Source: Malacoraja senta (lineage: Eukaryota). From it: a stretch of DNA of 64,000 nucleotides. Shown one piece after another: positions 10,612 to 61,162 of the stretch; position 1 is the first letter of the stretch; the number at the start of each line of letters is the position of its first letter. The notes below the pieces were generated by a model. That model was not told where the DNA came from. It ran no database searches and saw only the letters and a list, made by a program, of their open reading frames with translations. The stretch covers positions 22,012,001 to 22,076,000 of the forward strand of contig CM075988.1 of NCBI GenBank assembly GCA_038087875.1, read 5' to 3'. The translations under genes and the position numbers were made by a program.

Positions 10612-12096
10612 TATACATAGATACATAGATACATAGAAAATAGGTGCAGGAGTAGGCCATTCGGCCCTTTGAGCCTGCACCGCCATTCAATATGATCATG
10701 GCTGATCATCCAACTCAGTATCCCGTACCTGCCTTCTCTCCATACCCCCTGATCCCTTTAGCCACAAGGGCCACATCTAACTCCCTCTTAAATATAGCCA
10801 ATGAACTGGCCTCAACTACCCTCTGTGGCAGAGAGTTCCAGAGATTCACCACTCTCTGTGTGAAAAAGTTTTTCCTCATCTCGGTCTTAAAGGATTTCCC
10901 CCTTATCCTTAAGCTGTGACCCCTTGTCCTGGACTTCCCCAACATCGGGAACAATCTTCCTGCATCTAGCCTGTCCAACCCCATAAGAATTTTGTACATT
11001 TCTATAAGATCCCCTCTCAATCTCCTAAATTCTAGCGAGTATAAGCCAAGTCTATCCAGTCTTTCTTCATATGAAAGTCCTGACATCCCAGGAATCAGTC
11101 TGGTGAACCTTCTCTGCACTCCCTCTATGGCTATAATGTCCTTCCTCAGATTTGGAGACCAAAACTGTACGCAATACTCCAGGTGTGGTCTCACCAAGAC
11201 CCTGTACAACTGCAGTAGAACCTCCCTGCTCCTATACTCAAATCCTTTTGCTATGAAAGCTAACATACCATTTGCTTTCTTCACTGCCTGCTGCACCTGC
11301 ATGCCTACTTTCAATGACTGGTGTACCATGACACCCTGGTCTCGCTGCATCTCCCCATTTCCTAATCGGCCACCATTTAGATAATAGTCTGCTTTCCTGT
11401 TTTTACCACCAAAGTGGATAACCTCACATTTATCCACATTATACTGCATCTGCCAAACATTTGCCCACTCACCCAGCCTATCCAAGTCACCTTGCAGTCT
11501 CCTAGCATCCTCCTCACAGCTAACACTGCCCCCCAGCTTAGTGTCATCCGCAAACTTGGAGATGTTGCCTTCAATTCCCTCATCCAGTTCATTAATATAA
11601 ATTGTAAATAGCTGGGGTCCCAGCACTGAGCCTTGCGGTGCCCCACTAGTCACTGCCTGCTATTGTGAAAAGGACCCGTTTACTCCTACTCTTTGCTTCC
11701 TGTTTGCCAGCCAGTTCTCTATCCACATCAATACTGAACCCCCAATACCGTGTGCTTTAAGTTTGTATCCTAATCTCTTATGTGGTACCTTGTCGAAAGC
11801 CTTCTGAAAGTCCAGATACAACACATCCACTGGTTCTCCCCTATCCACTCTACTAGTTACGTCCTCGAAAAATTCTATAAGATTCGTCAGACATGAGTTA
11901 CCTTTCGTAAATCCATGCTGACTTTGTCCAATGATTTCACCACTTTCCAAATGTGCTGCTATCCCATCTTTAATAACTGACTCAAGAAGTTTCCCCACTA
12001 CCGATGTTAGACTAACTGGTCTGTAATTCCCCGTTTTCTCTCTCCCTCCCTTCTTAAAAAGTGGGGTTACGTTTGCTACCCTCCAATCCTCAGGAA
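10612..12096 (-). mobile_element. CR1 LINE (HER1-like), RT domain to 3' tail
   Basis: YLDFQKAFDKV, PQGSVLGP and KFADDTK motifs. One in-frame TAG at 11660-11662 splits the ORF. (TCTATGTA)n tail. Confidence 0.95.
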
Positions 12097-12147
12097 TCCT
12101 ACGACCTCCTACGACTATGCTTGCTGTCTCAGCACTTTAATCACTAA

Positions 12148-46584: not shown

Positions 46585-46714
46585 CTTCTTCTTCTTGAGT
46601 ATGGCGTGCACAGCCTAAAGTTGTAGGACAACTTGTTCCATTTGATCTTATTTGACTGTGCACACCGGGTTGATTGCAATCGTCAAAACAGTGAAGGTTG
46701 CAATCTCCCACCCC
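46585..46714 (-). mobile_element. Same ribozyme-headed retroposon with TSD; ribozyme internally deleted
   Basis: (AAG)n tail. 14-bp TSD ctgtatcacactat (46571-46584) / ccgtatcactctat (46715-46728). About 11 nt covering P3'/P1' are missing. Confidence 0.75.
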
Positions 46715-46788
46715 CCGTATCACTCTATGATTCATTAACAACATTAGGCAGCTAACCCACACAATTCCACAGGGCTTCCCCTGTATTG

Positions 46789-46794
46789 TTTATT
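46789..46794 (-). terminator. Candidate poly(A) signal of the Ly6 gene
   Basis: AATAAA on the minus strand ~470 nt after the stop, at the end of a repeat-free 3' UTR-like stretch. Confidence 0.55.
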
Positions 46795-47260
46795 ATTTCA
46801 TTCAGTCAGAAATTACAGATCCGTTCATTTACAGATCCTTACACTTACAAGCTTTCTTCATTTGTCCGGCAATGGCTGTTCCTGGATAAGACCATCTTGG
46901 TGGACAGTATCGCTATAACCTGTGACCTGGCCTCCTTAAGATTTCCCCTCATTCTGAAGATAACTCAATCAGATCACGTGTATGTTCATTCAAAGTTGCA
47001 CTCAGCGCCACGATGCTCAGCTAGCCAAGTCTTTATGAGTTTGACTGAAGATGCAGTGACACTCTGACGGTTGATTTTCACACGGATAACCCGGTAGACA
47101 ATGACAGAAGTTTTCACCTTAATTGAACCGCAGCAAGGGAGAAAAAAAACGACGACACTTGAAGGAAACGGCGCATTCTGAGCAGGAGAAATGACCATAT
47201 TTTCCCATTGGAAGCTTCTCCTGCAAACGGAGCAAGTGCAGCTGGGCACAAGCGGTCGGG

Positions 47261-47481
47261 TTAGGTTGAGCTGGTCAGTTCCAGCAGGGTCCAGGGGAGG
47301 GCGGTGGAGGCTGCCAGCAATGGCCAGCGGAGGCCGGGGCAGAAGGCAGCATTGTCGACATTGCACAGGTCCGTGGAGCAGCAGAGAACCTTCCTCCCTC
47401 CGACCACCAAGTTACTGGCGTCAGCATTGCACTCCGTTTGAAAGGAACACTTCTTGCTTACTGTGACGTAACCAAGTCCTA
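47261..47481 (-). CDS. Ly6/uPAR gene exon 3 (LGLGYVTVSKKCSFQTECNADASNLVVGGRKVLCCSTDLCN plus putative GPI signal)
   Basis: Acceptor cttttacag, Cys6-10 with the canonical CCxxDxCN terminus, hydrophobic tail, TAA at 47263-47261. Total CDS 399 nt = 132 aa. Confidence 0.92.
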
Positions 47482-47811
47482 CTGTAAAAGCATAAAGATA
47501 CAATGTCAACACACTGACACACTGGAGTGATATAGAGAGTTAGAAAAAGATAAGAAAGCTGTGTTAATGGATAGGCGACGTTTCGGGTCGAGACCCTTCT
47601 TCAGACTAATGTAGGGGGGGGCGGGCGGGAAAAAAATGAATTTTACCAAAGCCATTTTTGTCTACCGATGTTTCCAGCATCTGCAGTTCTTTCTCAAACA
47701 TTTCATCTCCACTGCAAAATCTCCTCAAGGTGTGTCTCCTCCTCTCGCCGAAGACAGTTTAGCAGCCTCCTCTCTCACTGGCTTCCTTTATTTTTCCCGC
47801 CCCCCCACATC

Positions 47812-47845
47812 AGTCTGAAGAAGGGTCTCGACCCGAAACGTCACC
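47812..47845 (+). ncRNA. Minimal type I hammerhead motif in a Penelope terminal repeat (representative copy)
   Basis: CUGAAGA-A-GGGU(CUCG)ACCC-GAAAC-GUC: hammerhead core, stem II hairpin and palindromic ACGU in place of stem III. Confidence 0.7.
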
Positions 47846-48273
47846 TATTCCTTCGCTCCATAGATGCTGCCTCACCCGCTGAGTTTCTCCAGCATTTTTG
47901 TCTACCTTAGATTAGACACAAAGTGCTGGAGTAACTCAGCGGGACAGGCAGCATCTCTGGATAGAAGGAATGGTTCTTCCCTCTTGCGTTTTAAGAATAA
48001 GGGGGTAAGCCATTTAGAACAGAGAGGAGGAAACACTTTTTCACACGGAGAGTTGTGAGTCTGTGGAATTCTCTGCCTCAGAGGGCGATGGAGGCCGGTT
48101 CTCTGGATACTTTCAAGAGAGAGCTAGATAGGGCTCTTGAAGATAGCGGAGTCAAGGGATATGGGGAGAAGGCAGGAACGGGGTACTGATTGGGGATGAT
48201 CAGCCATGATCACATTGAATGGCGGTGCTGGCTCAAAGGGCCGAATGGCCTACTCCTGCAGCTATTGTCTATT

Positions 48274-48386
48274 GTATGGCGTGCACAGCCTAAAGTTGTA
48301 GGACAACTTGTTCTGTTTGTGCACGCCAGGTTGATTGCATTTGTCGAAACAGGTTGGACCACGTGAAGGTTGCAATCTCCCACCCC
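48274..48386 (-). mobile_element. Same ribozyme-headed retroposon, tail lost
   Basis: Matches 60646-60785 with a short internal deletion; abuts a CR1 tail. Confidence 0.75.
48334..48386 (-). ncRNA. Minimal HDV-like ribozyme motif (Ly6 intron 2, sense)
   Basis: GGGGUGG-GAG-AUUGCA-ACC-UUCACGU-GGU-CCAACCU-G-UUUCGA-CAAA-UGCAAU. P2 and P3 are perfect; P1 has one G-A mismatch. Confidence 0.75.
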
Positions 48387-49271
48387 AAGAAATGGCTGAC
48401 GTTTTGGGTCGAGACCCTTCTTCACAAGTGTCTGAAGAACTTCTGAAGAAGTGTCTTGACACGAAATGTCACCCATTCCTTCTATCCAGAGATGCAGTCT
48501 GTCCTGCTGAATTACTCCAGCATTTTGTGTCTATCTTCGATGTAAACCAGCATCTGCATTTCCTTCCTACTAATTTATATGAGTTTGCAACCTAACTACA
48601 TTTATGTTTCGTGCCTTATATTCTTTAACAGAGACAAATGTGAGCAGTGCAAGTCACTGGAGTCTTTGGGCAATATTTTCAAGGCGGAGATTGACAGATT
48701 TTTGATTGGTAAAGGTTATGGGGAGAAGGCAGGAGAATGGTGAGTGGTGAGTCTGTGGAATTCTCTCCCTCAGAGGGCGGTGGAGGCAGGTTCTCTGGAT
48801 GCTTTCAAGATAGGGCTCTTAAAAATAGCAGAGTCAGGGGATATGGGGAGAAGGCAGGAACGGGGTACTGATTGGGGATGATCAGCCATGATCACAGTGA
48901 ATGGCGGTGCTGGCTCGAAGGGCCGAATGGCCTACTCCTGCACCTATTGTTTATTGTCTATTGTCTATTAATGGGGTTGAGAGGGAAAGATAGATCAGCC
49001 ATGATTGAATGGCGGCATAGACTTGATGGGCCAAATGACCTAATTCTACTGCTAGATCCTATGAACTTATAATCAAGAATCTGTCAATCTCCACCTTAAC
49101 AATACCTGGTGACAGCCTTCAGTTGCAATGAATTCCACAGATTCACCACCCTCTGACTAAAGAAATTCCTCCTCATCTCCTTTCTAAAGGTATGTCCTTT
49201 TATTCGGAGCAAAACAATCTGTGAAGCAGCAAGTGAATGGTAAACTATTTCCCCAAGAGGCCAAGAGCCCA

Positions 49272-49660
49272 AACGTACAAAATTCTTATGGGGTTGGACA
49301 GGCTAGATGCAGGAAGATTGTTCCCGATGTTGGGGAAGTCCAGGACAAGGGGTCACAGCTTAAGGATAAGGGGGAAATCCTTTAAGACCGAGATGAGGAA
49401 AAACTTTTTCACACAGAGAGTGGTGAATCTCTGGAACTCTCTGCCACAGAGGGTAGTTGAGGCCAGTTCATTGGCTATATTTAAGAGGGAGTTAGATGTG
49501 GCCCTTGTGGCTAAAGGGATCAGGGGGTATGGAGAGAAGGCAGGTACGGGATACTGAGTTGGATGATCAGCCATGATCATATTGAATGGCGGTGCAGGCT
49601 CGAAGGGCCGAATGGCCTACTCCTGCACCTATTTTCTATGTATCTATGTATCTATGTATG
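49272..49660 (+). mobile_element. CR1 LINE 3' fragment (Ly6 intron 2)
   Basis: Near-identical to the 3' end of 10612-12096. Confidence 0.92.
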
Positions 49661-49683
49661 TTATCAAAAGTAAAGCAACTTAC

Positions 49684-49812
49684 ACTGACTGAAGCCGACT
49701 GTCTTCACCGCAGTGAGGCACATAGTTTTGTTTGTGGGACATTGCTGGCGATCAGTGGTGCAAACCATTGCCATTCTTGCATTGGTACAGTTGTAGCATT
49801 CCAACGCTTCAG
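49684..49812 (-). CDS. Ly6/uPAR gene exon 2 (AEALECYNCTNARMAMVCTTDRQQCPTNKTMCLTAVKTVGFSQ)
   Basis: Acceptor attgcag, LECYNC start of an LU domain with Cys1-5, 129 nt, phase 1-1, donor GTAAGT. Confidence 0.92.
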
Positions 49813-50397
49813 CTGCAATGTCAATAGAACATAGAACAGTACAGCACAGGAACAGGCCCTTCGGCCCACAATGTCCATGCCGCACATGACGCCAAGTTAC
49901 ACTAACCTCCTCTGCCTCATGAAGGGCATTTGGCATCAAAAGTGTCAAGTCAGCACAACAAGCAAGAGGACTGTACTTTACATGTATCTACACACCGTAA
50001 TGGCTCGATTGTAATCATGTATTGTCTATCCGCTGACTGGATAGCAGGCAACAAAAGCTTTTCACTGTACCTCGGTACATGTGACAATAAACTAAACTAA
50101 CTTCCTTGATCATGTTGCTAACAAAAGCATTACCCCATTAATTTAGAGAAAATATAACCAAGAAATAATTGAAAATGCAATACGTCATATATTATTATCT
50201 GTCAGATACCACTTTCCAGGATTCACACACTATCATTAAATTTTTGCATTGTTGATTAACCATGATTTTCATTTCAAATTCAATTTGGAGTTTTGCGTTA
50301 TTGCACTACAGTATTTTTGAAAAACATCTCCAAGTCATTTTGATCCCTTTGATTCCCACGTATGTTCTGTTTGTCAGCCTCATTATCCAGGTGCCTT

Positions 50398-50706
50398 TTA
50401 GTTTAGTTTAGAGATGCAGCTCAGAAACAGGCCCTTCGGCCCACCGAGTCCGCACCAACCAGCGATCCACGTACACTAACACTTTCCTACACACACTAGG
50501 GACAACTTACAATCCTACAAAAGCCAATTAGCCGACAAACCCGTAGGTCTTTGGAATCGGGGAGGAAACCGGAGCGCCCGGAGAAAACCCACGCGGTCAT
50601 GGGGAGAACATACAAACTCCGTACAGACAGCACCCGTAGTCTGGATCGAACCTGGGTCCATGGCGCGGTAATGCAGCAACTCTACTGCTGAGCTATCGTG
50701 CCGCCA
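50398..50706 (-). mobile_element. tRNA-derived V-SINE (HE1-like)
   Basis: Reverse-complement full-length copy. Confidence 0.85.
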
Positions 50707-50715
50707 TGCTGCAGA

Positions 50716-50760
50716 GGTTTCCAATTGGAGGCGTGGGTTCGAATCCCACTTCTGACACCA
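50716..50760 (+). pseudogene. 3' part of tRNA-Leu including CCA (extended PBS)
   Basis: GGTTTCCAATTGGAGGCGTGGGTTCGAATCCCACTTCTGACACCA: variable arm, T arm, acceptor 3' strand and CCA; no 5' half. Confidence 0.85.
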
Positions 50761-50938
50761 TGTTGTGTTTTGTCTGTATAATAACTGGAGCCTTACACCA
50801 TGATAAAGATCCAAAGACTTTATTAACTACATAGCAAGCACGACCACACTTGCACGTCTCTCTAATTCTAAGGGAACCAGGCAAGGAGTGATTACTGTAA
50901 AGCTAGTGGGCATAACTACAAAAGCATGACTCATAACA
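50761..50938 (-). mobile_element. Gypsy-type LTR (178 bp) in Ly6 intron 1
   Basis: TG...CA ends with inverted TGTTATG/CACAACA and an internal AATAAA. Directly followed by the tRNA-Leu PBS TGGTGTCAGAAGTGGGAT. Confidence 0.8.
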
Positions 50939-52279
50939 TGAGTGACACTGAATTACAGTGGAAGTGAAGTTCAATGTCCAAATAGGATGTCAAAACCATT
51001 CCCCCCTTAACTTTAGATGCCATTGAAAGACATGGGGACAGTAACGGGAAAGTAGTGACTCCCATTGTCTCCTCACTAATGTCTATTGCCACCAAACCAC
51101 ATCATTGAGAAAACTTCAACATTTCAAAGTTTCAGATCATGGAAATTGACAAGTGATCTCTTCTATCGACACGTGTACAATGATACTTTATTTATCAATG
51201 CAACATGGAGTCTTTGTAACAAAAATAATAATAAAAACTATAATAAATAGATATGAAAAAACCCCGTAATTTCTGAAAGTCCCATCAGAGGTGATTAACT
51301 TTTTTTCGTGAGTGTGAAACTCTCTAGCCCCTAACCCCCTTTTCCCCATTGACACAGCCATGTTTATAGCTTGATCTATACAACGCGAGGATTCTGAGGA
51401 ATGCAGCTGTTACGTTCTAGGAGAGCTACCTGTACACTTGCTTATGTCACCCAGTTCTCCTGAGTTTGCACATCCCTGAGATCCTGAAGTTGTGCTCCTG
51501 GGCGGGCAGGTCGAGAGGGAGGTCCTGGACAAAGCGTGGTCCAAGAAGTAGACCTCGACGATGGTGGAACGTGGGGAGGATGGAGGATGGATGGATGGAT
51601 GCACCACAACGGCCGAGAAGACGGGAGAAGGCTGCGGCAGCAGGGAGAGACTCCAAACTGTGGTGGAGTCCATGCCGGCCGACCCAGGTCTGCCCAGGTC
51701 AAGGACCATGTGGTGGCCGCCCGTGCACCAAAGATGTCGCAGACGGAAGTCCACCTGGACCGACACATCCTGGCTTTTTTGACCAAGAGGACAATCATAC
51801 CCGACTTTGAGTAATCGTCGATGTTGATGTCGCCCAAAGTTTTTATCTTGCAGAATAGCCACAGACCTATCGGCAGAGATTGAAAGGGGAAGGAGGTTGG
51901 CCAGGAGAAGGGATTGTTAAGGAGACATTTTTAGAGGGAAGTAGTCCAAATGCAGGCAAACGGGATTGGCAAGAATATGTTCAGTTCAGTTCAGTTTTAT
52001 TTGTCATATGTACGTTGACACAGGGTCAACGGTACAATGAAATGTGTTTGACAAGACAACGGGTCACCTCAGCAATGATATTACAAGGATAAAATTAAGG
52101 TTAAAAAAAAATAAAAAAATAAAAAAAAATGATGGACCAAAGGGCCTGTTTGCTTGATGCACAGGCTCTATGACACTCGCTAAGACAGTTTTGATTAAAT
52201 TACATCAACATAAAATTTTAAGTGGTCTTTCATTTGTTGCAACCAATAAAAAATAATGCGATCAAGCATGTGATCTTAC

Positions 52280-52328
52280 CGCATAGGGAGCAAAGTGCTG
52301 CAATGAAGGCTCCAGTAATTAATTTCAT
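52280..52328 (-). CDS. Ly6/uPAR (three-finger) gene, signal-peptide exon (MKLITGAFIAALCSLC+G)
   Basis: ATG at 52328, hydrophobic signal-like peptide, 49 nt, phase-1 donor GTAAGA. Phase is compatible with the next exon. Confidence 0.85.
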
Positions 52329-53052
52329 TTTGATCTTATCTTTAGCTGCTGAATGTCAACGATTCTACCTTCTGTCCGCTTCCTGGTGAGAAACATAAAC
52401 GTGTACCACTATTTTAAACTTAAAACATCCTGTAACAATTGTATCTACAGTAAATCAGATCCACCCTCCGCGGACTCTCGAATCGGCCTCGAGCCACTGG
52501 CCTCGAGGAACCGAGCTGCCGAGAGCGAGGAGGGACCAAGAGTGGGGTGAGAACAATGGGGGTACCCGGCGTGGGGGGGGGGGGGTGGGCAGAGAATAAA
52601 GGGACCCGGCGTGAGGGACGCCAACGTGAGGGGCCACCAAGAACAAAGGGGAGGCTCGGCGGGCCCAGACTTTGCCAAAGAGCAAAACTTCACAAAGGTC
52701 TTTCAGGTGAGGACCTCAGTCCATATTCCAGATTCATTCAAGACCCAGTGCCCTCTTGAACTAACTCTGAGGGACATTGAGATGCGGCAAGCTGCTCTGT
52801 GAAACCACAATAGGCCTGATGGAACTGACTTTAGCCAGCTGCCTGTTGCCACCGCAACCCCAACCCACTCCATCCAACCTATGGCCCATCCATTCTCGTA
52901 GGAACCAAGAAATGAAGGACTAGTCAAAACTGCGGTTGTTGTTTTAGATTCATAGCATGTGAAGTTTCTCTTTGATCATCACTTCTTTGCCATCATACAA
53001 GAGCAGTAAGAAGCTGAGATGCAGAGTCCTGCTGACAAGCTGTTATTGTATA

Positions 53053-53484
53053 ATAGAAACATAGAAACATAGAAAATAGGTGCAGGAGTAGGCCATTCGG
53101 CCCTTCGAGCCTGCACTGCCATTCGATATGTTCATGGCTGATCATCCAACTCAGTATCCCATCCCTGCCTTCTCTCCATACCCCCTGATCCCTTTAGCCA
53201 CAAGGGCCACATCTAACTCCCTCTTAAATATAGCCAATGAACTGGCCTCAACTACCTTCTGTGGCAGAGAATTCCACAGATTCACCACTCTCTGTGTAAA
53301 AAATGATTTTCTCATCTCAGTCCTAAAAGACTTCCCTCTTATCCTTAAACTGTGACCCCTAGTTCTGGACTTCCCCAACATCGGGAATAATCTTCCTGCA
53401 TCTAGCCTGTCCAACCCCTTAAGAATTTTGTACGTTTCTATAAGATCCCCCCCTCAATCTTCTAAATTCTAGCGTATACAAGCC
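53053..53484 (-). mobile_element. CR1 LINE 3' fragment
   Basis: Same subfamily as the copies at 10612 and 49272. Confidence 0.9.
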
Positions 53485-54669
53485 GATAAATGCCTGGTGT
53501 GAATGAATTGGGTATCTGCCTCATTGGAAAGTGCCTGAGTTCAGTCTTGTCTAGTGCCTGGATCTGCAACTCTTCCACCCACAAAAGTTCATGATCACAT
53601 CGCCGCCACGACCAACAGCACTTGACCATTGAGAGCTCGTAGTCTCGGGTAGAGACCGTAGATGTCGGGAGCTCCAACGACGCAGAAGGTTCGACCAGCC
53701 CCGACCCGGGGTCCGATCGCCCGGCGCGGGGAGCTGACATCACCCCGATGCAGGAGCTTGATCGCCCCGACGCAGAGGACCCAAACGCCGCCGGCTACGG
53801 GAGTCAAGATCGTCCCGTCAACGGAAGGCTTGAGGCCCTCGACCGCGGGAGAACAAAGAAGGGTCTTTTTTTCGCCTTCCATCACAGTGAGGAATGTGGA
53901 GGAGTCACTGTGGTGGATGTTTATGTTAAAATGTATTTTGTGTGTTCCGTTGCTTTTTATTTGTATGACTGACTTGGCAAATCAAATTCCACATATGTTG
54001 CAAAAATACTTGGCTAAGTATTATTGTATTGTAAAATGTTTTACACTGAAATACAATGTTAAAATTAATGAGTTCATGAGCAGCAGTAAAACAAGAGATC
54101 TCTAATTTCACTTTTTAATTGTCAATTATATATTAATATATTTTTTTATTCAATATTAACATGTAAATTTTAATATATTATGTATCACAAAATAGAATGA
54201 TTCAAATTTTTGATTAACTTCCTCATTGTTTTTGGGGAAAAAAACTTTTATTGAGAAAGTTTTGAGATAGTTTTTAAATTTGTTTTCTGGGCAATTAAAG
54301 TTTTTTTTCCCCTTCTGCTTACACTTCCTAAAGGATTACTTTCACCAAGGTCCCATTCGTACGTACCTTGTAATGAGGGTCGCCTCGATGTGTCTAGAAC
54401 AGAGGCAGTAAAATGAACAAGACTTTGGGAGAAATGATGTGTCCAGTGATCTTAAGCGACTCTTGGTCATTTACAATTCAGAATCGTACAAGCTGGATAC
54501 ATGCATGGCATAAGCACGTCAGTTATCAGTTTAAAATTAAATACTGCTGTAATATTGCATCACAATCACTGGACACCACGACTGTGATCAAGCTATAGAT
54601 AGGGAAGCATTATGATGTCACAGAAGGTAGACACAAAGTGCTGGAGCAACTCAGCAGGCCAGGCAGTAT

Positions 54670-54703
54670 CAAAGATACTAGAGGAGTTCCTCTAGTATCT
54701 TTG
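54670..54703. mobile_element. 34-bp hAT-like micro-element
   Basis: CAAAGATACTAGAGG-AGTT-CCTCTAGTATCTTTG. TSD ggcagtat/ggcagctt, where the host repeat consensus is ggcagcat. Confidence 0.75.
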
Positions 54704-57700
54704 GGCAGCTTCTCTGGAGAGAAGGAACGGCTGACATTTCAGGTTGGAACCCTTCTTCAGACTGAAAGTAGAGAGGTGGGAACTGGAGGTAGTAAAAATG
54801 GCATCATATATGTATATATCACATTCTGTGTCTATCCATTGATATTGGTATCAGTTTAATAGTCATGTTTACAGACGGTGAAAGCTTCATTTGCGAGCGA
54901 TCCAACTGTACAGTCGGGGTCAAGGAAAGAGCGTTCACGTCGCGGCCCTGTTTCCACCAATCATTCCACCACCACGCACAAGAAGCGACAAGACAGACAC
55001 CATTGTATGCAGATGCCGAGAAGTGTGTTCGGCTCTGGCTGAACAACTTCTAATCTTGTGTGTGGACTTGATAAGAACTGTACAGTCAAGTCATACACAA
55101 GTGCAAAGAGAAAAATACAAGCATGCAGAATACGTTATTACAGTGTTATAGAGGGAACGGTCCAAGGTCTGCAATTCTCTGCAATTTCTTGCGGTCTTGG
55201 ATGGAGCTGTTCCCAAACTATGCTGTGATGCGTCCTGAAAAAACTATTGCCACGGCGCATTTGTAGAAATTGGTTAGAGTTGTTAGGAACATGCCGAACT
55301 TCCTAGCCTTCTAAGGACGTTGAGGCGTTGGTGTGATTTCTTGGCCATTCCCTTCAATATGGGTGGACCAGAACAGTACAGGAACGGAAATTTGGCCAAC
55401 AATGTTTGTGCCGAACATAATGCCATGTTAAACTGAATCTCATGATCCATATCCCTCCATTTCTCTGTGCCTATCTCAAAGCCTCTTAAACACCACTACC
55501 CACGTTAGCAAGGATAAAGAGCATGTTGCAGGAGAATTTGCTCCAATTGTACAAGGTCTTGCTGAGAGCACACCTGGAATAGTAAATACAGGTGTGGTCT
55601 ACCTCTCTAAGGATGGATACACTTGCGATGGGGTTAGTGCAGTGAAGCTTCGCCAGATTCATTTATTGTAGGAGAAAAGAATAGGCAGACTTTCGTGATT
55701 TTCTGAAAATAAGATGTGACCATGTTCACCCATACAAAGTTGTAAAGGGGCATTCTAAGTGTGGATGTAGATTTGATGTTTTCCTTAGTTGGGCTGTCTG
55801 GAAGCAGAAGTCTCTGTCAGAATAAAGAGTGAGATAACAAGACATGGTGTCCAATCAGTTCACATTGGTGAAACCTTGTATTCTCTACACCAGGCAGCTG
55901 TGTAACCAGTCATTTTCATTCACAGAAAGAGACATCAATAGATTTCTGAACAGTAAAGGAATCAAGGGATACAGTGATCGTGCTGAGGTCAAAATCTGTC
56001 ATAATAATAATAATAATAATGAATTTTATTTGCGGGCGCCTTATACCGAGGTCTCAAGGACACCTTACAGAGATTTATAGGAAACATATAATCAGAATTT
56101 AAAAAAATAAGTTATAAAGACCAATACACAAATCAGGGACAGAATTCCTTCCAAAAACACAAAAAAAGAAAATCAGAAGCACAATTTGAGGAGAGAGCAG
56201 CGGCAACGAAACCGCACCAGCGTCCACTCTCCCCTCCGACCGCCATCTTGAACACAGACTAACAAATACAATTACAAACAATTACATACAAAAATCATCC
56301 CCCCACAATGATTTCCACTGTGGGGGAAGGCACAATGTCCAGTCCCCAGCCCCAGTTCACCCAAAAAGGTCAGGCCAAATGAAGCCCCCGCTATTGCCTC
56401 TACGGAGGCCCGATGATCCTGGCCGTTCTCGCCGGGTGATGTAGCCCCGGTGTCGGGAGAGTCCTCTAGCGGTTGGGCCACCTGGAACGGCCGCATTCCT
56501 CACCGGAGGCCGCAACTACGGCTGGAACGGCCGATTTCCCGCAAGCGTCCGCAGCACCTGAAGCCGACAAGGCCGCGCGTCATGATCTGAGCTGGCTCCG
56601 CAGTCTGAATGGCCTACTCCAGCTCCTCTCTGGTCAGGTGAGGTCAAGTTGAATTGAGTTTATTGCCAATATGCACAAGTGCAGTAATGTACAGGCAGCA
56701 TCACCAGCAAATACATTCAGGTAACACACAAAAAGATAAATTATTGTTAAATTACACATAAATTCTGCAAAATAATGAAAAGACAAAAAGAAACAAGACA
56801 TTAGTGTGAAAAAAACCTCAAGTGCATGCATGGTCACGACAGTCTCAACATAATGTTGTGAACCTTTGGATTTCTGTACTGAACAATGTAGGTGTAATCT
56901 CACAAAAGAAGCTTGTATCTTCTCCCTGTCATCGCATGGGTATTTCACAGCTGCTCCAATTTAATCCCACATCCAACAAATATGCTGGCAGTTTAATTAG
57001 GTTAATTAGTGCCTAATTAATAGCAATTTATAGTAGCTAATTAACCTAACCCTATAGTGGAGGCAGCTCAGTATTCCACAGACAGAGAACACTCAGGTGT
57101 GAGAGGGAGGATGCAGAAGAGGCAGGTGCATCATTATTTTAATGAAGGAGTCCGTTTGGTGAGGTTTTATTTGAGAGATACAGCGCGGAAACAGGCCCCA
57201 GGGTCATCCGAGTCCGCGCCGATCAACAATCACCTGTACACTAGTTCTATCCGACACACTTGAGACAATTTACAGAGGCTGATTAACCTACACGTCTTTG
57301 GAATGTGGGTGGAAACCAGAGCTCGCACAGGTAGAACGTGCAAACTCTCAATGCTCAGAGCTGATTTTTACCCTCTGTAAGATAAGGTCAGTTCACACCA
57401 GCAGGTTTGGTGGCAATGTGGAGTTGGTCCTTGGTGAGTGGATAGACGGATTGAAAGATACAGCGTGGAAACAAGCTGTAGGCCCAACGAGCTGACCACC
57501 GATCACCCGTTCATACTCGTTCTATGTTATCCTACTTTCGCATCGGCTACTTACACACCAAGAGCAAATTACAGAAGGCAATTAACCTACAAATCTGCAC
57601 GTCTTTGGAATGTGGGGAGGAAACCGGAGCACCCGGAGGAAACCCACGCAGTTGCAGTGAGATTGTACAAACTGCACACGGACAGCACCCAATGTCAGGA

Positions 57701-60450
57701 TCAAACCCATGTCTTTGATACTTTGTGTAATTGGAACAAATTTTCCTGCAATAAAGCCCGGCATAACATTTATGATTGCTGCGTTAGTGCACAAGGAATG
57801 GTAACATTTGAACCAATGTCATGCTGGTGACATATCAAGCATAGATCGAGGGAGGGAACATGACTGGAGGGATGTCCATTGGGTTGGGAAGTGTGATGGC
57901 AGGGCAATAGATCCACTGTCCACAGTGACGGCTCCTGGCAACTAAATGGACAAGAAGGTGAAGGTGGTGGAACAAGAGCACTGTGTTGACCTCGGAATTT
58001 CTTCAGATGTGAACATTGCAATATTAGCACGAGGCCTCTGCCAAGAGCTGAAGGTTCATACCATTAGAAAGGAGATGAGGAAGAATTTCTTTAGGCGGAG
58101 GGTGGTGAATCTGTAGAATTTATTGCCACAGACGGCTGTGGAGACCGAGATCTTTTTAAGGCAGAGATTGACAGATTCTTGATTAGTACAGGTGTGAAGA
58201 GTTATGGGGAGAAGGCAGGAGAATGGGATTGAGAGGGAAAGATAGATCAGCCATGATTGAAATGGCAAAGTAGACTTGATGGGCCGAATGGCCTAATTTC
58301 CTCCTAGAACTTATGAACTGATTGTTTGCAATGAGAGAATTTCAAATATAGTGAAAACACATCATGATCTTAAATCATGAAGAAGGGTCTCGGCCCGAAA
58401 TGTCACCTATTCCTTCTCTCCAGAGATGCTGCCTGTCCCGCTGAGTTACTCCAGCATTTTGTGTCCACCTCATGATCTTAAATGTCAACTCTCTGAATAG
58501 ATGCTGCCTGACTTGAATACTTTTAGCTGCTCTATTTTCATTTCAAATTTCTATCATCTGCAGTATATATATTTTGATTATTGTTAACTTTCTGTAATTT
58601 GGCTCAGTTTCTTCTACATACCAGTCAGCATTTGCGTGTCAGCATTTTGATTTTTTGTTTTTCCTTTCAAAGTGAGTAACTTGACATTTCACTCCATCTG
58701 CCTACCTCTTTCCAGCCCACTTAACCCACCCACATTCCTTGCAGCCTGTTCTGACTTTTCCCTTCAATTGCCAAGTCTAGTACCATCAGCAAATTTCAAT
58801 ACCTTTCATTCAGTCCCATTAGCTTAAAATCGGATAAAGATTGCAATTAAGTGGATTTTACAACCTAGAGGATGACCTTTTAAACCATCTCATAAGCAAA
58901 GAGAACTAAACGCAGAAAATTACCACCATTATGTGTTGATTGTTTCTGATTAACGTCCTTTCAGTACATTAGAACGGAGACGAGGAAACACTTTTTTTAC
59001 AACGGAGACGAGGAAACACTTTTTCTCACAGAGAGTTGTGAGTCTGTGGAATTCTCTGCCTCAGAGGGCGGTGGAGGCCGGTTCTCTGGATACTTTCAAG
59101 AGAGAGCCAGATAGGGCTCTTAAAGATAGCGGAGTCAGGGGATATGGGGAGAAGGCAGGAACTGGGTACTGATTGGGGATGATCAGCCATAATCACATTG
59201 AATGCCGATGCTGGCTCGAAGGGCCGAATGGCCTACTCCTGCACCTATTGTCTATTGTCTATTGGTACGTTTTACGATGCAGTGAATGATAGGAGAAAGA
59301 CAGTGGGATGGTTTGCATTTGGGCAGAAATCAGACAAGCTCAATTAACAATAAGAACATCAGTGTAAGACAGGAATGGTATAAAGAACAACCAAGTGGAC
59401 CAGCAGAATTACTGGGAATCATGATCTAAAATCTGAAATAACGTGCACCACACTATTGCTATTGAGAATGTCACTGAATTTGATGCCTAATGTGGGAATG
59501 AAAGTTCAGTTTACACTTACAGTTAGTCATACAGCGTGGAAACAAGCCCTTCGGCCCAACTTGCCCACAGACCAACATGCCCCATCTACACTAGACCAAC
59601 CTGCCCATGCATAACTCATTACCCTTTAAATCTATCCTATCCACATACTTGTCTAAATGTCTCTTAAATGTTGTGATAGTACCTGCCCCAACTACGTCCT
59701 CTGGCAACTCGTTCCATATACCCACCGACCTTTGTATGAATAAAAGTTACCCCTTAGGTTCCTATTAAATCTTTCCCCCCTCACCATAAACCTATGTCCT
59801 CTGGTCCTTGATTCCCCAACTCTGGGCAAAAGACTCTGCATTTACCTGACCTATTCCGCTCATGATGTTGTACACTTGTATGCCAATGGTCAGGCTCTTA
59901 ATTTCCATTTCTATTACCAGTACATTTTATGGAACCAGATTCCGTTTACTGCTGGGAAATATTAAAATAGACGCAGAGAAATCACGAGAAGCTTAATGTT
60001 TGCAAGATGAGTGAATTAGATATTTATGATTTTGTTTACAAATAGCATGAAATGGTTTGTGCGCCAGGGTTATACAACACAAGTGGTTTTGATATAATGA
60101 GAATATAACAGATATTAGCCAATTCCAAAATTATCCTCCTGGCACATTGCTTGCAAGTGAGATAGCTCCACCTTCATTACATCTACTTGATGAATACAAA
60201 CTTTCTTATTTAATAAATAAAAATCAATGGTGATATTTTCCACTCTTTCATTCAGCATTTAATTGTCCATAAATATTGTTGCTGTGGTTGTGTCGATTTT
60301 GCTTTCATGCTTCATTGTGTAATTTTACTTCGCTGATGTGGACATCAAGTCCCGAGTAAATGTTCATTTGAAACGCTGGTACCCTCCTTTTGGAAAGAAG
60401 ATAGTAATAAACGTTGTTGCTGTGCTGGTATCAACACTCTTAGTAGCTCT

Positions 60451-60576
60451 CTAGCTTCCAGCAGATGGGGTATTTTCATGCAAGTTTTGCAAGGCCAGGT
60501 CAGTCCATTTCATGTCTTGTTCATTAATCGATTCTGTTGTTCCCCCGTTATCTTGCTCGGGTTCCGGAAGTTCACT
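60451..60576 (-). CDS. ANAPC13: ANAPC13 last coding exon (SELPEPEQDNGGTTESINEQDMKWTDLALQNLHENTPSAGS*)
   Basis: Acceptor ttttccttccctag, then a translation matching the APC13 C-terminus (ELPEPEQDNGGTTES..KWTDLALQ.LHEN). TAG at 60453-60451. 33+41 = 74 aa, the usual APC13 length. Confidence 0.97.
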   Translation of the reverse strand, partial: SELPEPEQDNGGTTESINEQDMKWTDLALQNLHENTPSAGS

Positions 60577-60645
60577 CTAGGGAAGGAAAATAAACACGCA
60601 GGATATAGACAGGCACCTTTCTAAGATGCATATTAATGGGCAACT

Positions 60646-60785
60646 CTTCTTCTTCTTCTTGCGTATGGCGTGCACAGCCTAATGTTGTATACTTGTTCTA
60701 TTAGATCTTATTTGATTGTGCACGCCGGGTTGATTGCATTTGTCGAAACAGGGCGGACAACGTGAAGGTTGCAATCTCCCACCCC
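60646..60785 (-). mobile_element. Short non-autonomous ribozyme-headed retroposon (Vingi/Ingi-like), full length
   Basis: ~140 bp, 5' GGGGTGGGAG, 3' end CGCCATACGC(AAG)n. Same family at 46585 and 48274. Confidence 0.75.
60733..60785 (-). ncRNA. Minimal HDV-like ribozyme motif (ANAPC13 intron, sense)
   Basis: GGGGUGG-GAG-AUUGCA-ACC-UUCACGU-UGU-CCGCCCU-G-UUUCGA-CAAA-UGCAAU folds by hand into P1 (G1-U), P2, P3 (one mismatch), L3, a mini P4 with UUCG and J4/2 with C. Confidence 0.75.
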
Positions 60786-61162
60786 ATAGGCTCCTCCGTT
60801 TACAGGATCTCCAGAGGGAATTCACAAGTTCATATGTTATAGGAGCAGAATTAGGCTTTTCGGCCCATCATGTCTACTCCGCCATTCAATCATGGCTCTC
60901 AACCCCATTTTCCTGCCTTCTCCCCATAACCCTTGAAACAAGTACTTTTCAAGAATCTGCAAATCCTCCCCTTTAAAATACCCAATGACAGCCTACACAG
61001 CTTTCTGTGGCAATGAATTCCACAGATTCACCACCTTCTGATGAAAGAAATTCCCACTCATCTCCTTTCTAAAGGTATGTCCTTTTATTCTGAGGCAATT
61101 ACAGATGTTAGACTAACTTTAGGCTGTTCAAACGTGAGAGTTACTCTGAGTACAGTACATAC

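Follow-up and report, generated by a model that had tools for sequence, protein, structure and literature searches.

Three copies of a short retroposon lie on the minus strand of the 64,000-nt stretch of Malacoraja senta DNA analysed here (the window; GCA_038087875.1, CM075988.1:22,012,001-22,076,000, forward strand), and the intact form of its head can be folded as a ribozyme of the class that resembles the one in hepatitis delta virus (HDV-like), which would cut the RNA of the element at its first base. An original prediction, made from the letters of this DNA, had held that the three copies begin at one and the same G, and this was borne out by exact matches to the 24-nt head at 46691-46714, 48363-48386, and 60762-60785 (0.00 expected from shuffles); the 3' 20-mer of the element is matched exactly in the same three copies. 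The head consists of P1 (GGGGUGG/CCGCCCU, 7 bp, with G1.U36 at its base), P2 (GAUUGCA/UGCAAUC, 6-7 bp), P3 (ACC/GGU, 3 bp), the junction J1/2 (GA), the loop L3 (UUCACGU), P1.1 formed by C22-G37 plus U21.U38, a 6-nt linker (UUUCGA) replacing P4, and J4/2 (C44-N-A-A). The fold drawn by hand in the original prediction was correct in every element; P2 can, however, reach 7 bp, so the motif is 54 nt long and J1/2 is 2 nt, and of the proposed J4/2, C(G/A)AA, the C and the AA stood while the range found was C(G/A/U)AA. We refer to the element as a short interspersed element (SINE), even though the head derived from a small RNA gene (tRNA, 7SL, or 5S) that brings a classical SINE its RNA polymerase III promoter was not found: ARAGORN detected no tRNA in the three window copies, in agreement with the earlier statement that there is no tRNA head, and Rfam no small-RNA family.

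Copy 3 (60644-60785, minus strand, as are all features of the three copies) is the whole element, its head and body followed by CATACGC and an (AAG)n tail; no target-site duplication could be recognised around it. Its 54-nt HDV/CPEB3-type head occupies 60732-60785, in which P1 pairs 60779-60785 with 60750-60756, P2 pairs 60770-60776 with 60732-60738, and P3 would pair 60767-60769 with 60757-60759 and is broken by a G27U change at 60759. This change is private to copy 3, since the contigs of all four runs show the other base at 60759. L3 lies at 60760-60766, P1.1 joins C 60764 to G 60749, the linker spans 60743-60748, and J4/2 (CAAA) spans 60739-60742, with 60742 as the putative catalytic C. 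The 10-bp stem predicted for the 3' half is present and appears in the predicted minimum free energy (MFE) fold, its 5' arm (GGCGTGCACA) at 60717-60726 and its 3' arm (TGTGCACGCC) at 60667-60676, followed by an (AAG)5 tail at 60646-60660. Copy 1 (46585-46714) is a whole element with a 14-bp target-site duplication (2 mismatches) adjoining G1; its head remnant (46672-46714) is unable to form the fold because an 11-nt deletion takes P3' and most of P1'. Copy 2 (48274-48386) runs from G1 to CATAC and lacks the tail, and its 54-nt head (48333-48386) has a P1' of CCAACCU, which creates a G4.A33 mismatch, is otherwise intact, and passed a generic HDV descriptor. Thus, the predicted ending, CATACGC(AAG)n, holds for copy 3 but not for copy 2, in which another repeat adjoins CATAC. 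This second abundant repeat, with (CTATTGT)n-like end units, adjoins or interrupts the element at several loci (window 48200-48273, minus strand; L023, L029, L125), and in copy 2 it stands in place of the (AAG)n tail. Contig depth from the four runs covers 60644-60787 and collapses at 60788-60811, i.e., it stops at G1. In contigs from three other organisms, coverage of the element is very deep, and its boundaries and ribozyme core are unchanged; the family is therefore common to more than this species.

Genome-wide, the element is about 135 nt long and present in about 10,000 copies. Searches of the 1.94-Gb assembly at no more than 2 mismatches gave 4695 plus 4715 matches to the head and 5172 plus 5149 to the tail block, counts that are lower bounds, and reversed control sequences of both gave no match in the same assembly under the same limit. 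The 5' ends were examined in the first 90 tail-block matches listed on contig 1, aligned to a natural reference copy (L016), a sample that is blind to the head because it was seeded from the tail block. Eighty of the 90 begin at reference nt 1-3 (nt 1 in 66 copies, nt 2 in 11, and nt 3 in 3); the remaining 10 comprise two nested insertions, three truncations, and five sequences with only the last ~20-35 nt in common (LINE tails; LINE, long interspersed element). The flanks upstream of nt 1 are unrelated among copies, and in 49 of these 80 full-length copies there is a perfect direct repeat of at least 6 bp, of which the upstream copy ends at -1 and the downstream copy follows the (AAG)n tail; the target-site duplications are mostly 11-13 bp. 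Repeats abutting G1, together with the sharp starts, are the signature of target-primed reverse transcription of an RNA starting exactly at G1. In the flanks of the full-length copies (L010-L130), T stands at -1 in 46/80, a T-rich run occupies -15 to -13, and -12 is most often A. Mean divergence of the full-length copies from the column majority is 5.7%. G occupies position 1 in 65 of 76 copies and C occupies position 44 in 67, with 7 of the remainder reading T at a CpG. Shared variants of the head are compatible with pairing (G32A in 22/76, C31U in 7/76, and C35U in 6/76) or fall at unpaired positions (G8A in 19/76, G42A in 14/76, and G, A, or U at position 45). Nested insertions were also seen in L007, L002, and L003, and one copy (L025:740-1480) is split by an insertion whose translation, read by eye, contains a GIY-YIG-like motif typical of Penelope-like elements.

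The original prediction had called the element a non-autonomous retroposon and had suggested looking for a partner LINE sharing both ends. Such a partner, LINE-A, was found and, with the 11-13-bp duplications and the (AAG)n tails, supports that description. LINE-A is ~3.1 kb long and has one open reading frame (ORF) for an apurinic/apyrimidinic endonuclease (APE), a reverse transcriptase (RT), and a C-terminal CCHC motif. One near-full copy (L059) shows, in order, the head minus its first ~9 nt, a short 5' untranslated region (UTR), an ATG ~107 nt after G1, APE, RT, and a CCHC-type C terminus; Pfam matched Exo_endo_phos_2 and RVT_1 on pieces of this copy and nothing on its two C-terminal pieces; the absence of RNase H depends on the reading frames chosen, the copies being broken. 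In another copy (L009), the ORF enters the shared tail block and stops at the TAG of CTT-TAG-GC, after which come an 18-nt 3' UTR and (AAG)n; the stop codon lies directly upstream of the position matching the 3' arm of the 3' stem, an arm that falls within the ~35-40 nt common to the 3' end of the LINE. A search with the C terminus of L009 gave 2110 first-look candidates, and all 150 that were scored have E<=6.4e-33. The LINE-specific 5' UTR gave only 64 first-look candidates, from which it follows that most LINE-A copies are 5' truncated, as is usual for LINEs; most of the head is present at 6 of 10 LINE 5' loci. The short element keeps the first ~80 nt of LINE-A and its last ~35-40 nt (stop codon, 18-nt 3' UTR, and (AAG)n tail) and has no ORF. 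It is, in the terminology of Kojima 2018 (PMC5786205), a bipartite, ORF-less, internally deleted non-autonomous derivative of LINE-A. A 5'/3' panhandle in the LINE was considered as support for the 3' stem and rejected, since only 7 nt are complementary and 218/500 shuffles equal this. Several LINE-A copies have a 5' segment inverted beside the 3' part (C1:3934655/3935271, C2760:532893/533116, C1:120995636/120996049, and C8:52752983/52754346), resembling the twin-priming 5' inversions of L1.

A search with the RT revealed other LINE families in the same genome at 40-48% amino-acid identity, and the heads of these families, taken together with those at the loci of the Rfam matches, share with the SINE the segment lengths up to G37, an L3 of UUC(A/U)CGU, and C-N-A-A before P2', while the helix sequences differ. 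Against the P1 of SINE and LINE-A (GGGGUGG/CCGCCCU, with P2 AUUGCA/UGCAAU in its six-pair form, P3 ACC/GGU, and no P4), LINE-C has P1 GGGGAUC/GAUCCCU, P2 GUAGAA/UUCUAC, P3 GCG/CGC, and a P4 of 8 bp; LINE-B has P1 GGGGGAC/GCCCCCC, P2 GGAUCA/UGAUCC, P3 GCG/CGC, and a P4 of 6 bp; and the family designated famF has P1 GGGGGUC/GACCCCU, P2 GUAGAA/UUCUAC, P3 GCA/UGC, and a P4. In famG, P1 is 5' truncated, P2 is GCAGGA/UCCUGC, P3 is GCG with CAC or CGU (altered in both copies), and P4 is present. The remaining family, famE (L153, L154, L155, L156, L157, and L162), is a second P4-less family with a 54-nt head, having P1 (G)GGGUC/GGCCCC, P2 GAAAGA/UCUUUC, and P3 GCG/CGC; it reads (T)GGGGTC AAG GAAAGA GCG TTCACGT CGC GGCCCCT G TTT(T/C)CA CCAA TCTTTC, so that P1 is apparently 6 bp, with a T before the first G in 5 of 6 copies. 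Since the famE linker resembles the UUUCGA of the SINE, the loss of P4 may be common to both. Of six further full-length LINE-C heads, five begin with GGGGAUC, and the sixth carries one G more. One LINE-B head (L139) carries one extra G and one extra C. Two LINE-C copies, L134 and L135 (reverse complement), have 4-6 tandem repeats of the first 27 nt ahead of a complete ribozyme, the 27-nt unit being the 5' strands of P1 and P2, P3, L3, and P3', and each unit a partial match to the Rfam model RF00622; they may have arisen by 5' template switching or may represent an array of promoter-like monomers. At dozens of loci, the match is confined to residues 1-55 of the LINE-B ORF, with ~82% identity and short frames (e.g., C297:63871-64035 and C3984:119903-120067), and LINE-B may have internally deleted derivatives of its own.

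Pairing across these heads was quantified on an alignment (A5) of 26 heads from seven sequence families of this genome, with 18 pairs in pseudoknot notation. Standard pairs fill 94.1% of 439 cells, compared with 36.3-48.0% when partners are slid by 1-3 columns; 11 of the 18 pairs change on both sides, in 95 cells against 2-17 when slid; and the covariation score is 0.559 against at most 0.119. None of 500 shuffles matched the observed paired percentage, the number of both-side cells, or the covariation score, and 86/500 matched the count of 11 pairs. Because all rows come from just seven lineages, the cells are not independent events; for famE, one flank base was kept for register and counted as four unpaired cells, and one P2 pair of the minimal rows lies in columns with gaps. 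Smaller alignments agree with A5, and P2 was counted on A3, A4, and A5, as the MAFFT alignment A2 misplaced the P2' of LINE-B. The features that define the HDV-like class recur: a nested double pseudoknot in which P1 crosses P2 with P3 and P1.1 inside; C22-G37 in 26/26 heads; G1.U36 at the base of P1 in SINE, LINE-C, and famF (G1-C36 in LINE-B); and a catalytic-type C in J4/2, with C-N-A-A directly before P2' in 7/7 families.

The branch of the class to which these heads belong is indicated by RF00622, the CPEB3_ribozyme model, which scored four LINE-C 5' ends at 64.2, 63.8, 52.6, and 40.7 bits (gathering score, 35), LINE-B at 19.9 bits, and famE above the cut-off at 36-44 bits. In the whole genome, 39 of 59 scored candidates exceed the cut-off and 51 of 59 have E<=0.001, while none of 14 control genomes has a match; inspected matches (for example, L137:107-190, minus; L136:306-389, plus; L145:53-125, plus) lie at the 5' ends of Vingi-type LINEs. 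The HDV-like fold of the original prediction thus gained support, both from the covariation across seven families and from matches over the gathering score on sister LINE heads. With the CPEB3 ribozyme itself, which lies in an intron of CPEB3, the SINE head shares identical segment lengths to G37 (7/3/6/3/7/3/7/1), the L3 UUCACGU, P1.1 as C22-G37 plus U.U, and a 4-nt J4/2, CGAA, in keeping with the published description of that ribozyme (P1.1 of one G-C plus U-U, a 4-nt J4/2 with the active cytosine, and U20/G25 in L3; PMC4836649). It differs in lacking P4, in having P1, P2, and P3 sequences fully replaced, and in heading a mobile element present in ~10^4 copies, as opposed to occupying one conserved intronic site. 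We file the SINE head as a putative P4-less derivative of the CPEB3-type branch of HDV-like ribozymes and not, by the Rfam criterion, as a member of RF00622. The CPEB3 ribozyme is described in PMC8233481 as "not found outside of mammals," and, judged from listings, none of the open-access papers found traces it to a LINE. The human CPEB3 oligonucleotides (PMC5984629) and the Vingi-2_Gav and SINE2-1_AMi fragments (PMC5786205) are, by eye, near-identical outside P4.

These resemblances bear on the clade of LINE-A, which the original prediction had proposed as Vingi/Ingi-like. LINE-A has the single ORF with APE and RT that characterizes Vingi, with no RNase H found by Pfam, and the 5' ends of its relatives match by eye those of Vingi-2_Gav (nt 2-74), Vingi-4_Crp, Vingi-1_BF, and Vingi-2_SPur as printed in the supplement of PMC5786205, where these ends are aligned to an alligator SINE. 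Vingi-2_Gav has the architecture of LINE-C and is, again by eye, ~85% identical to it outside P4, with two compensatory differences (A5-U32 versus G-C in P1 and U12-A versus C-G in P2). Both lines of evidence speak for the proposed assignment; membership of LINE-A in the Vingi clade is, on these sequence grounds, supported but not proven, and a protein-cluster look-up returned APE and RT clusters, none with a clade name. Vingi LINEs, as outlined in PMC5786205, are alike in being compact, in encoding APE and RT but not RNase H in one ORF, and in yielding derivatives made of their 5' and 3' ends, among them the Vingi-1_EE derivatives and SINE2-1_AMi with its Vingi 5' part. Their printed 5' ends contain the same GCG/UUC(A/U)CGU/CGC ... 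CGAA motif; unlike the SINE, they keep the P4 hairpin. According to the same source, RTE, Ingi, Vingi, and R2 make bipartite derivatives, and Ingi is the sister clade of Vingi. Among these four, Vingi is the one without a reported ribozyme: in the open-access literature we found no paper claiming a Vingi ribozyme, nor any HDV-like ribozyme in sharks other than that of R2.

Taken together, the element is very probably a derivative of the Vingi-type LINE-A headed by a P4-less ribozyme of the delta lineage that cuts 5' of G1; the head is inherited from the parent LINE and most likely trims the RNA of the element so that it begins precisely at its first nucleotide. The site at which the fold predicts cleavage and the 5' end that the target-site duplications mark independently are the same, in the SINE (80/90 copies) as in LINE-C. 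The proposed sequence of events is as follows: (i) transcription of a longer host or read-through RNA would include the element; (ii) the head would fold and cleave the phosphodiester bond 5' of G1, leaving an RNA that starts exactly at G1; (iii) the LINE-A protein would recognise the shared 3' end and prime reverse transcription at a nicked target (T-rich, then A, at the nick); and (iv) full-length cDNA would give rise to insertions beginning at G1 and flanked by 11-13-bp duplications. Co-transcription, catalysis by the P4-less form, and trans-mobilisation by LINE-A are the parts of this scheme that we infer, as is the proposal, already made in the original prediction, that the element may cut itself out of host transcripts. 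The most economical reading is the route established for R2, RTE, and L1Tc, in which a co-transcribed element frees itself at its first base and is copied by a LINE protein.

Several observations weigh against a catalytic head. First, the fold is not everywhere as expected: (i) the SINE head has the 6-nt UUUCGA in place of the P4 hairpin of the class, and its activity is assumed by analogy with minimal variants in the literature, which can do without P4; (ii) LINE-B heads (L132, L144, and L139) have a constant G1-C36 and not G.U, together with an A6.C31 mismatch; (iii) none of the three window copies has a perfect ribozyme fold, and every pair and every core base are kept in only 31 of 76 full-length copies, the other 45 having a defect; and (iv) no compensatory change was seen inside the SINE family (76 copies), whose members are too young for it at 5.7% divergence, so all covariation comes from comparison with other families. 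Second, the search tools are reserved about the SINE itself. A gathering scan of the whole window with Rfam gave no match, and when copy 3 was scanned by E-value the sole match, to RAGATH-9, was one of chance, results attributable to the private P3 mutation of copy 3 and to the missing P4; an intact copy (L016) matches RF00622 in register at 17.1 bits (E=0.016), below the gathering score of 35, and HDV-F-prausnitzii at 14.4 bits, with a match that runs precisely from G1 to where P2' ends, these being the best two of four weak matches. The MFE z-score of the whole element is -1.22, a measure that is uninformative for a pseudoknot. The generic HDV descriptor finds the heads and also ~9 unrelated match types in 714,812 nt, including the SINE antisense strand, or about one unrelated match per 80 kb, so that a descriptor match alone is weak evidence.

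The sharp 5' end, moreover, could equally arise from an internal promoter. The first ~55 nt would then start transcription at G1, as Pr77 does in L1Tc, and the fold would be structural or protein binding and not a catalyst; a fixed transcription start fits the sharp ends just as well as cleavage does, and in L1Tc the same 77 nt are reported to be promoter and ribozyme at once (PMC3383444). We regard this explanation as unlikely, if the best placed of the alternatives, in that conservation follows base pairs and not a DNA motif (11 of the 18 pairs change on both sides with pairing kept), the sister heads belong to a ribozyme family proven to self-cleave (RF00622), and C-N-A-A stands directly 5' of P2' in all seven families; promoter and cleavage roles are, in addition, not mutually exclusive. 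Marginally less probable still is that the P4-less head is a catalytically dead relic of a CPEB3-type ribozyme and that the SINE descends from a single source copy or a small number of them, the transcripts of which began at G1 by chance. The missing P4, the score under the Rfam cut-off, and the 45/76 copies already defective are what such a relic would be expected to show. On the other hand, ~10,000 copies in several subfamilies (G8A, G32A, and N45 variants) all keep the G1 start, and many successive source copies must therefore have made RNA with the same end; a second, independent-looking P4-less family with a 54-nt head, famE, passes the RF00622 cut-off; and minimal P4-less delta ribozymes have been reported as active (10.1101/2023.06.13.544163).

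Least probable of the three, and in our view quite improbable, is that the fold was selected mainly for something other than 5' processing (protection of an uncapped 5' end, recognition by the LINE protein, or the translation start of the LINE ORF ~107 nt after G1), with cleavage secondary; the cap-like protection described for R2 ribozymes (PMC13708176) and the retention of the LINE 5' end by bipartite derivatives that code for nothing (PMC5786205) are in its favour, yet such roles presuppose a cleaved, folded 5' end and add to cleavage without replacing it, and an ORF-less SINE gains nothing from translation initiation and nevertheless keeps the fold. Initiation of translation by R2 ribozymes, which would also count for such a role, was reportedly described by Ruminski in 2011.

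Delta-type ribozymes at LINE 5' ends are already known, as are short derivatives that keep them (R2 SIDEs and NARTc). In the Ingi clade, the HDV-like ribozyme L1TcRz heads both the LINE L1Tc and its internally deleted non-autonomous derivative NARTc (PMC3185411 and PMC3383444), the arrangement proposed here; it differs in its protist host, its 77-nt length, and its double use as a promoter, and our likening goes by its description and not by sequence. The short internally deleted R2 elements of Drosophila (SIDEs; PMC3414825) likewise combine a LINE 5' ribozyme with a LINE 3' end and are non-autonomous, but they are described as site specific in ribosomal DNA, as belonging to a LINE with a restriction-like endonuclease, and as having a larger ribozyme and few copies. 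Minimal delta ribozymes from metagenomes and theta ribozymes from gut phages share the double pseudoknot without P4 at ~50-60 nt. These are microbiome or phage sequences with tRNA-linked or unknown roles, and the origin and function of the minimal P4-less delta ribozymes are described as open, whereas here the form belongs to a retroposon of an animal whose genome also contains relatives that bear P4. Judged against the open-access literature, what is new is the Vingi clade, the cartilaginous-fish host, the very high copy number of a 54-nt form that naturally lacks P4 and is accompanied by relatives having it, and the sequence-level kinship with CPEB3.

On balance, we lean towards a joint account in which the Vingi 5' ribozyme and the CPEB3 ribozyme form one lineage, the latter being an exapted Vingi 5' end, and in which P4 was lost at least once, producing a natural 54-nt minimal ribozyme that would still set RNA 5' ends in ~10^4 copies, thousands of which may cut host transcripts. 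If this is true, the genome supplies the missing outgroups of the CPEB3 ribozyme, and the matches of the CPEB3 model at LINE 5' ends offer a concrete and testable origin for a ribozyme that has been regarded as mammal specific and has had no outgroups. The Vingi clade and a vertebrate host would likewise join the LINE clades with 5' processing by a delta-type ribozyme, and a ribozyme of this kind may be the reason for the ease with which Vingi, in common with RTE, Ingi, and R2, yields derivatives composed of 5' and 3' ends. The heads also constitute a natural deletion series within one genome (P4 with 8 bp, with 6 bp, or absent), providing material for assessing the contribution of P4. With all pairs retained in ~41% of the copies sampled, thousands of sites within host transcription units may be competent for cleavage, and these could influence intron continuity and gene output, as has been proposed for the CPEB3 intron.

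A Pfam scan of 19 window ORFs gave only an RT fragment and a short ALKBH8_N match; at 10715-12133 (minus strand), two neighbouring ORFs match RVT_1 and are what is left of a different LINE. ARAGORN also reported a tRNA-Arg(gcg)-like sequence between copies 2 and 3, at 56467-56549 (minus strand), either a tRNA gene, perhaps, or part of a SINE with a tRNA-derived head.

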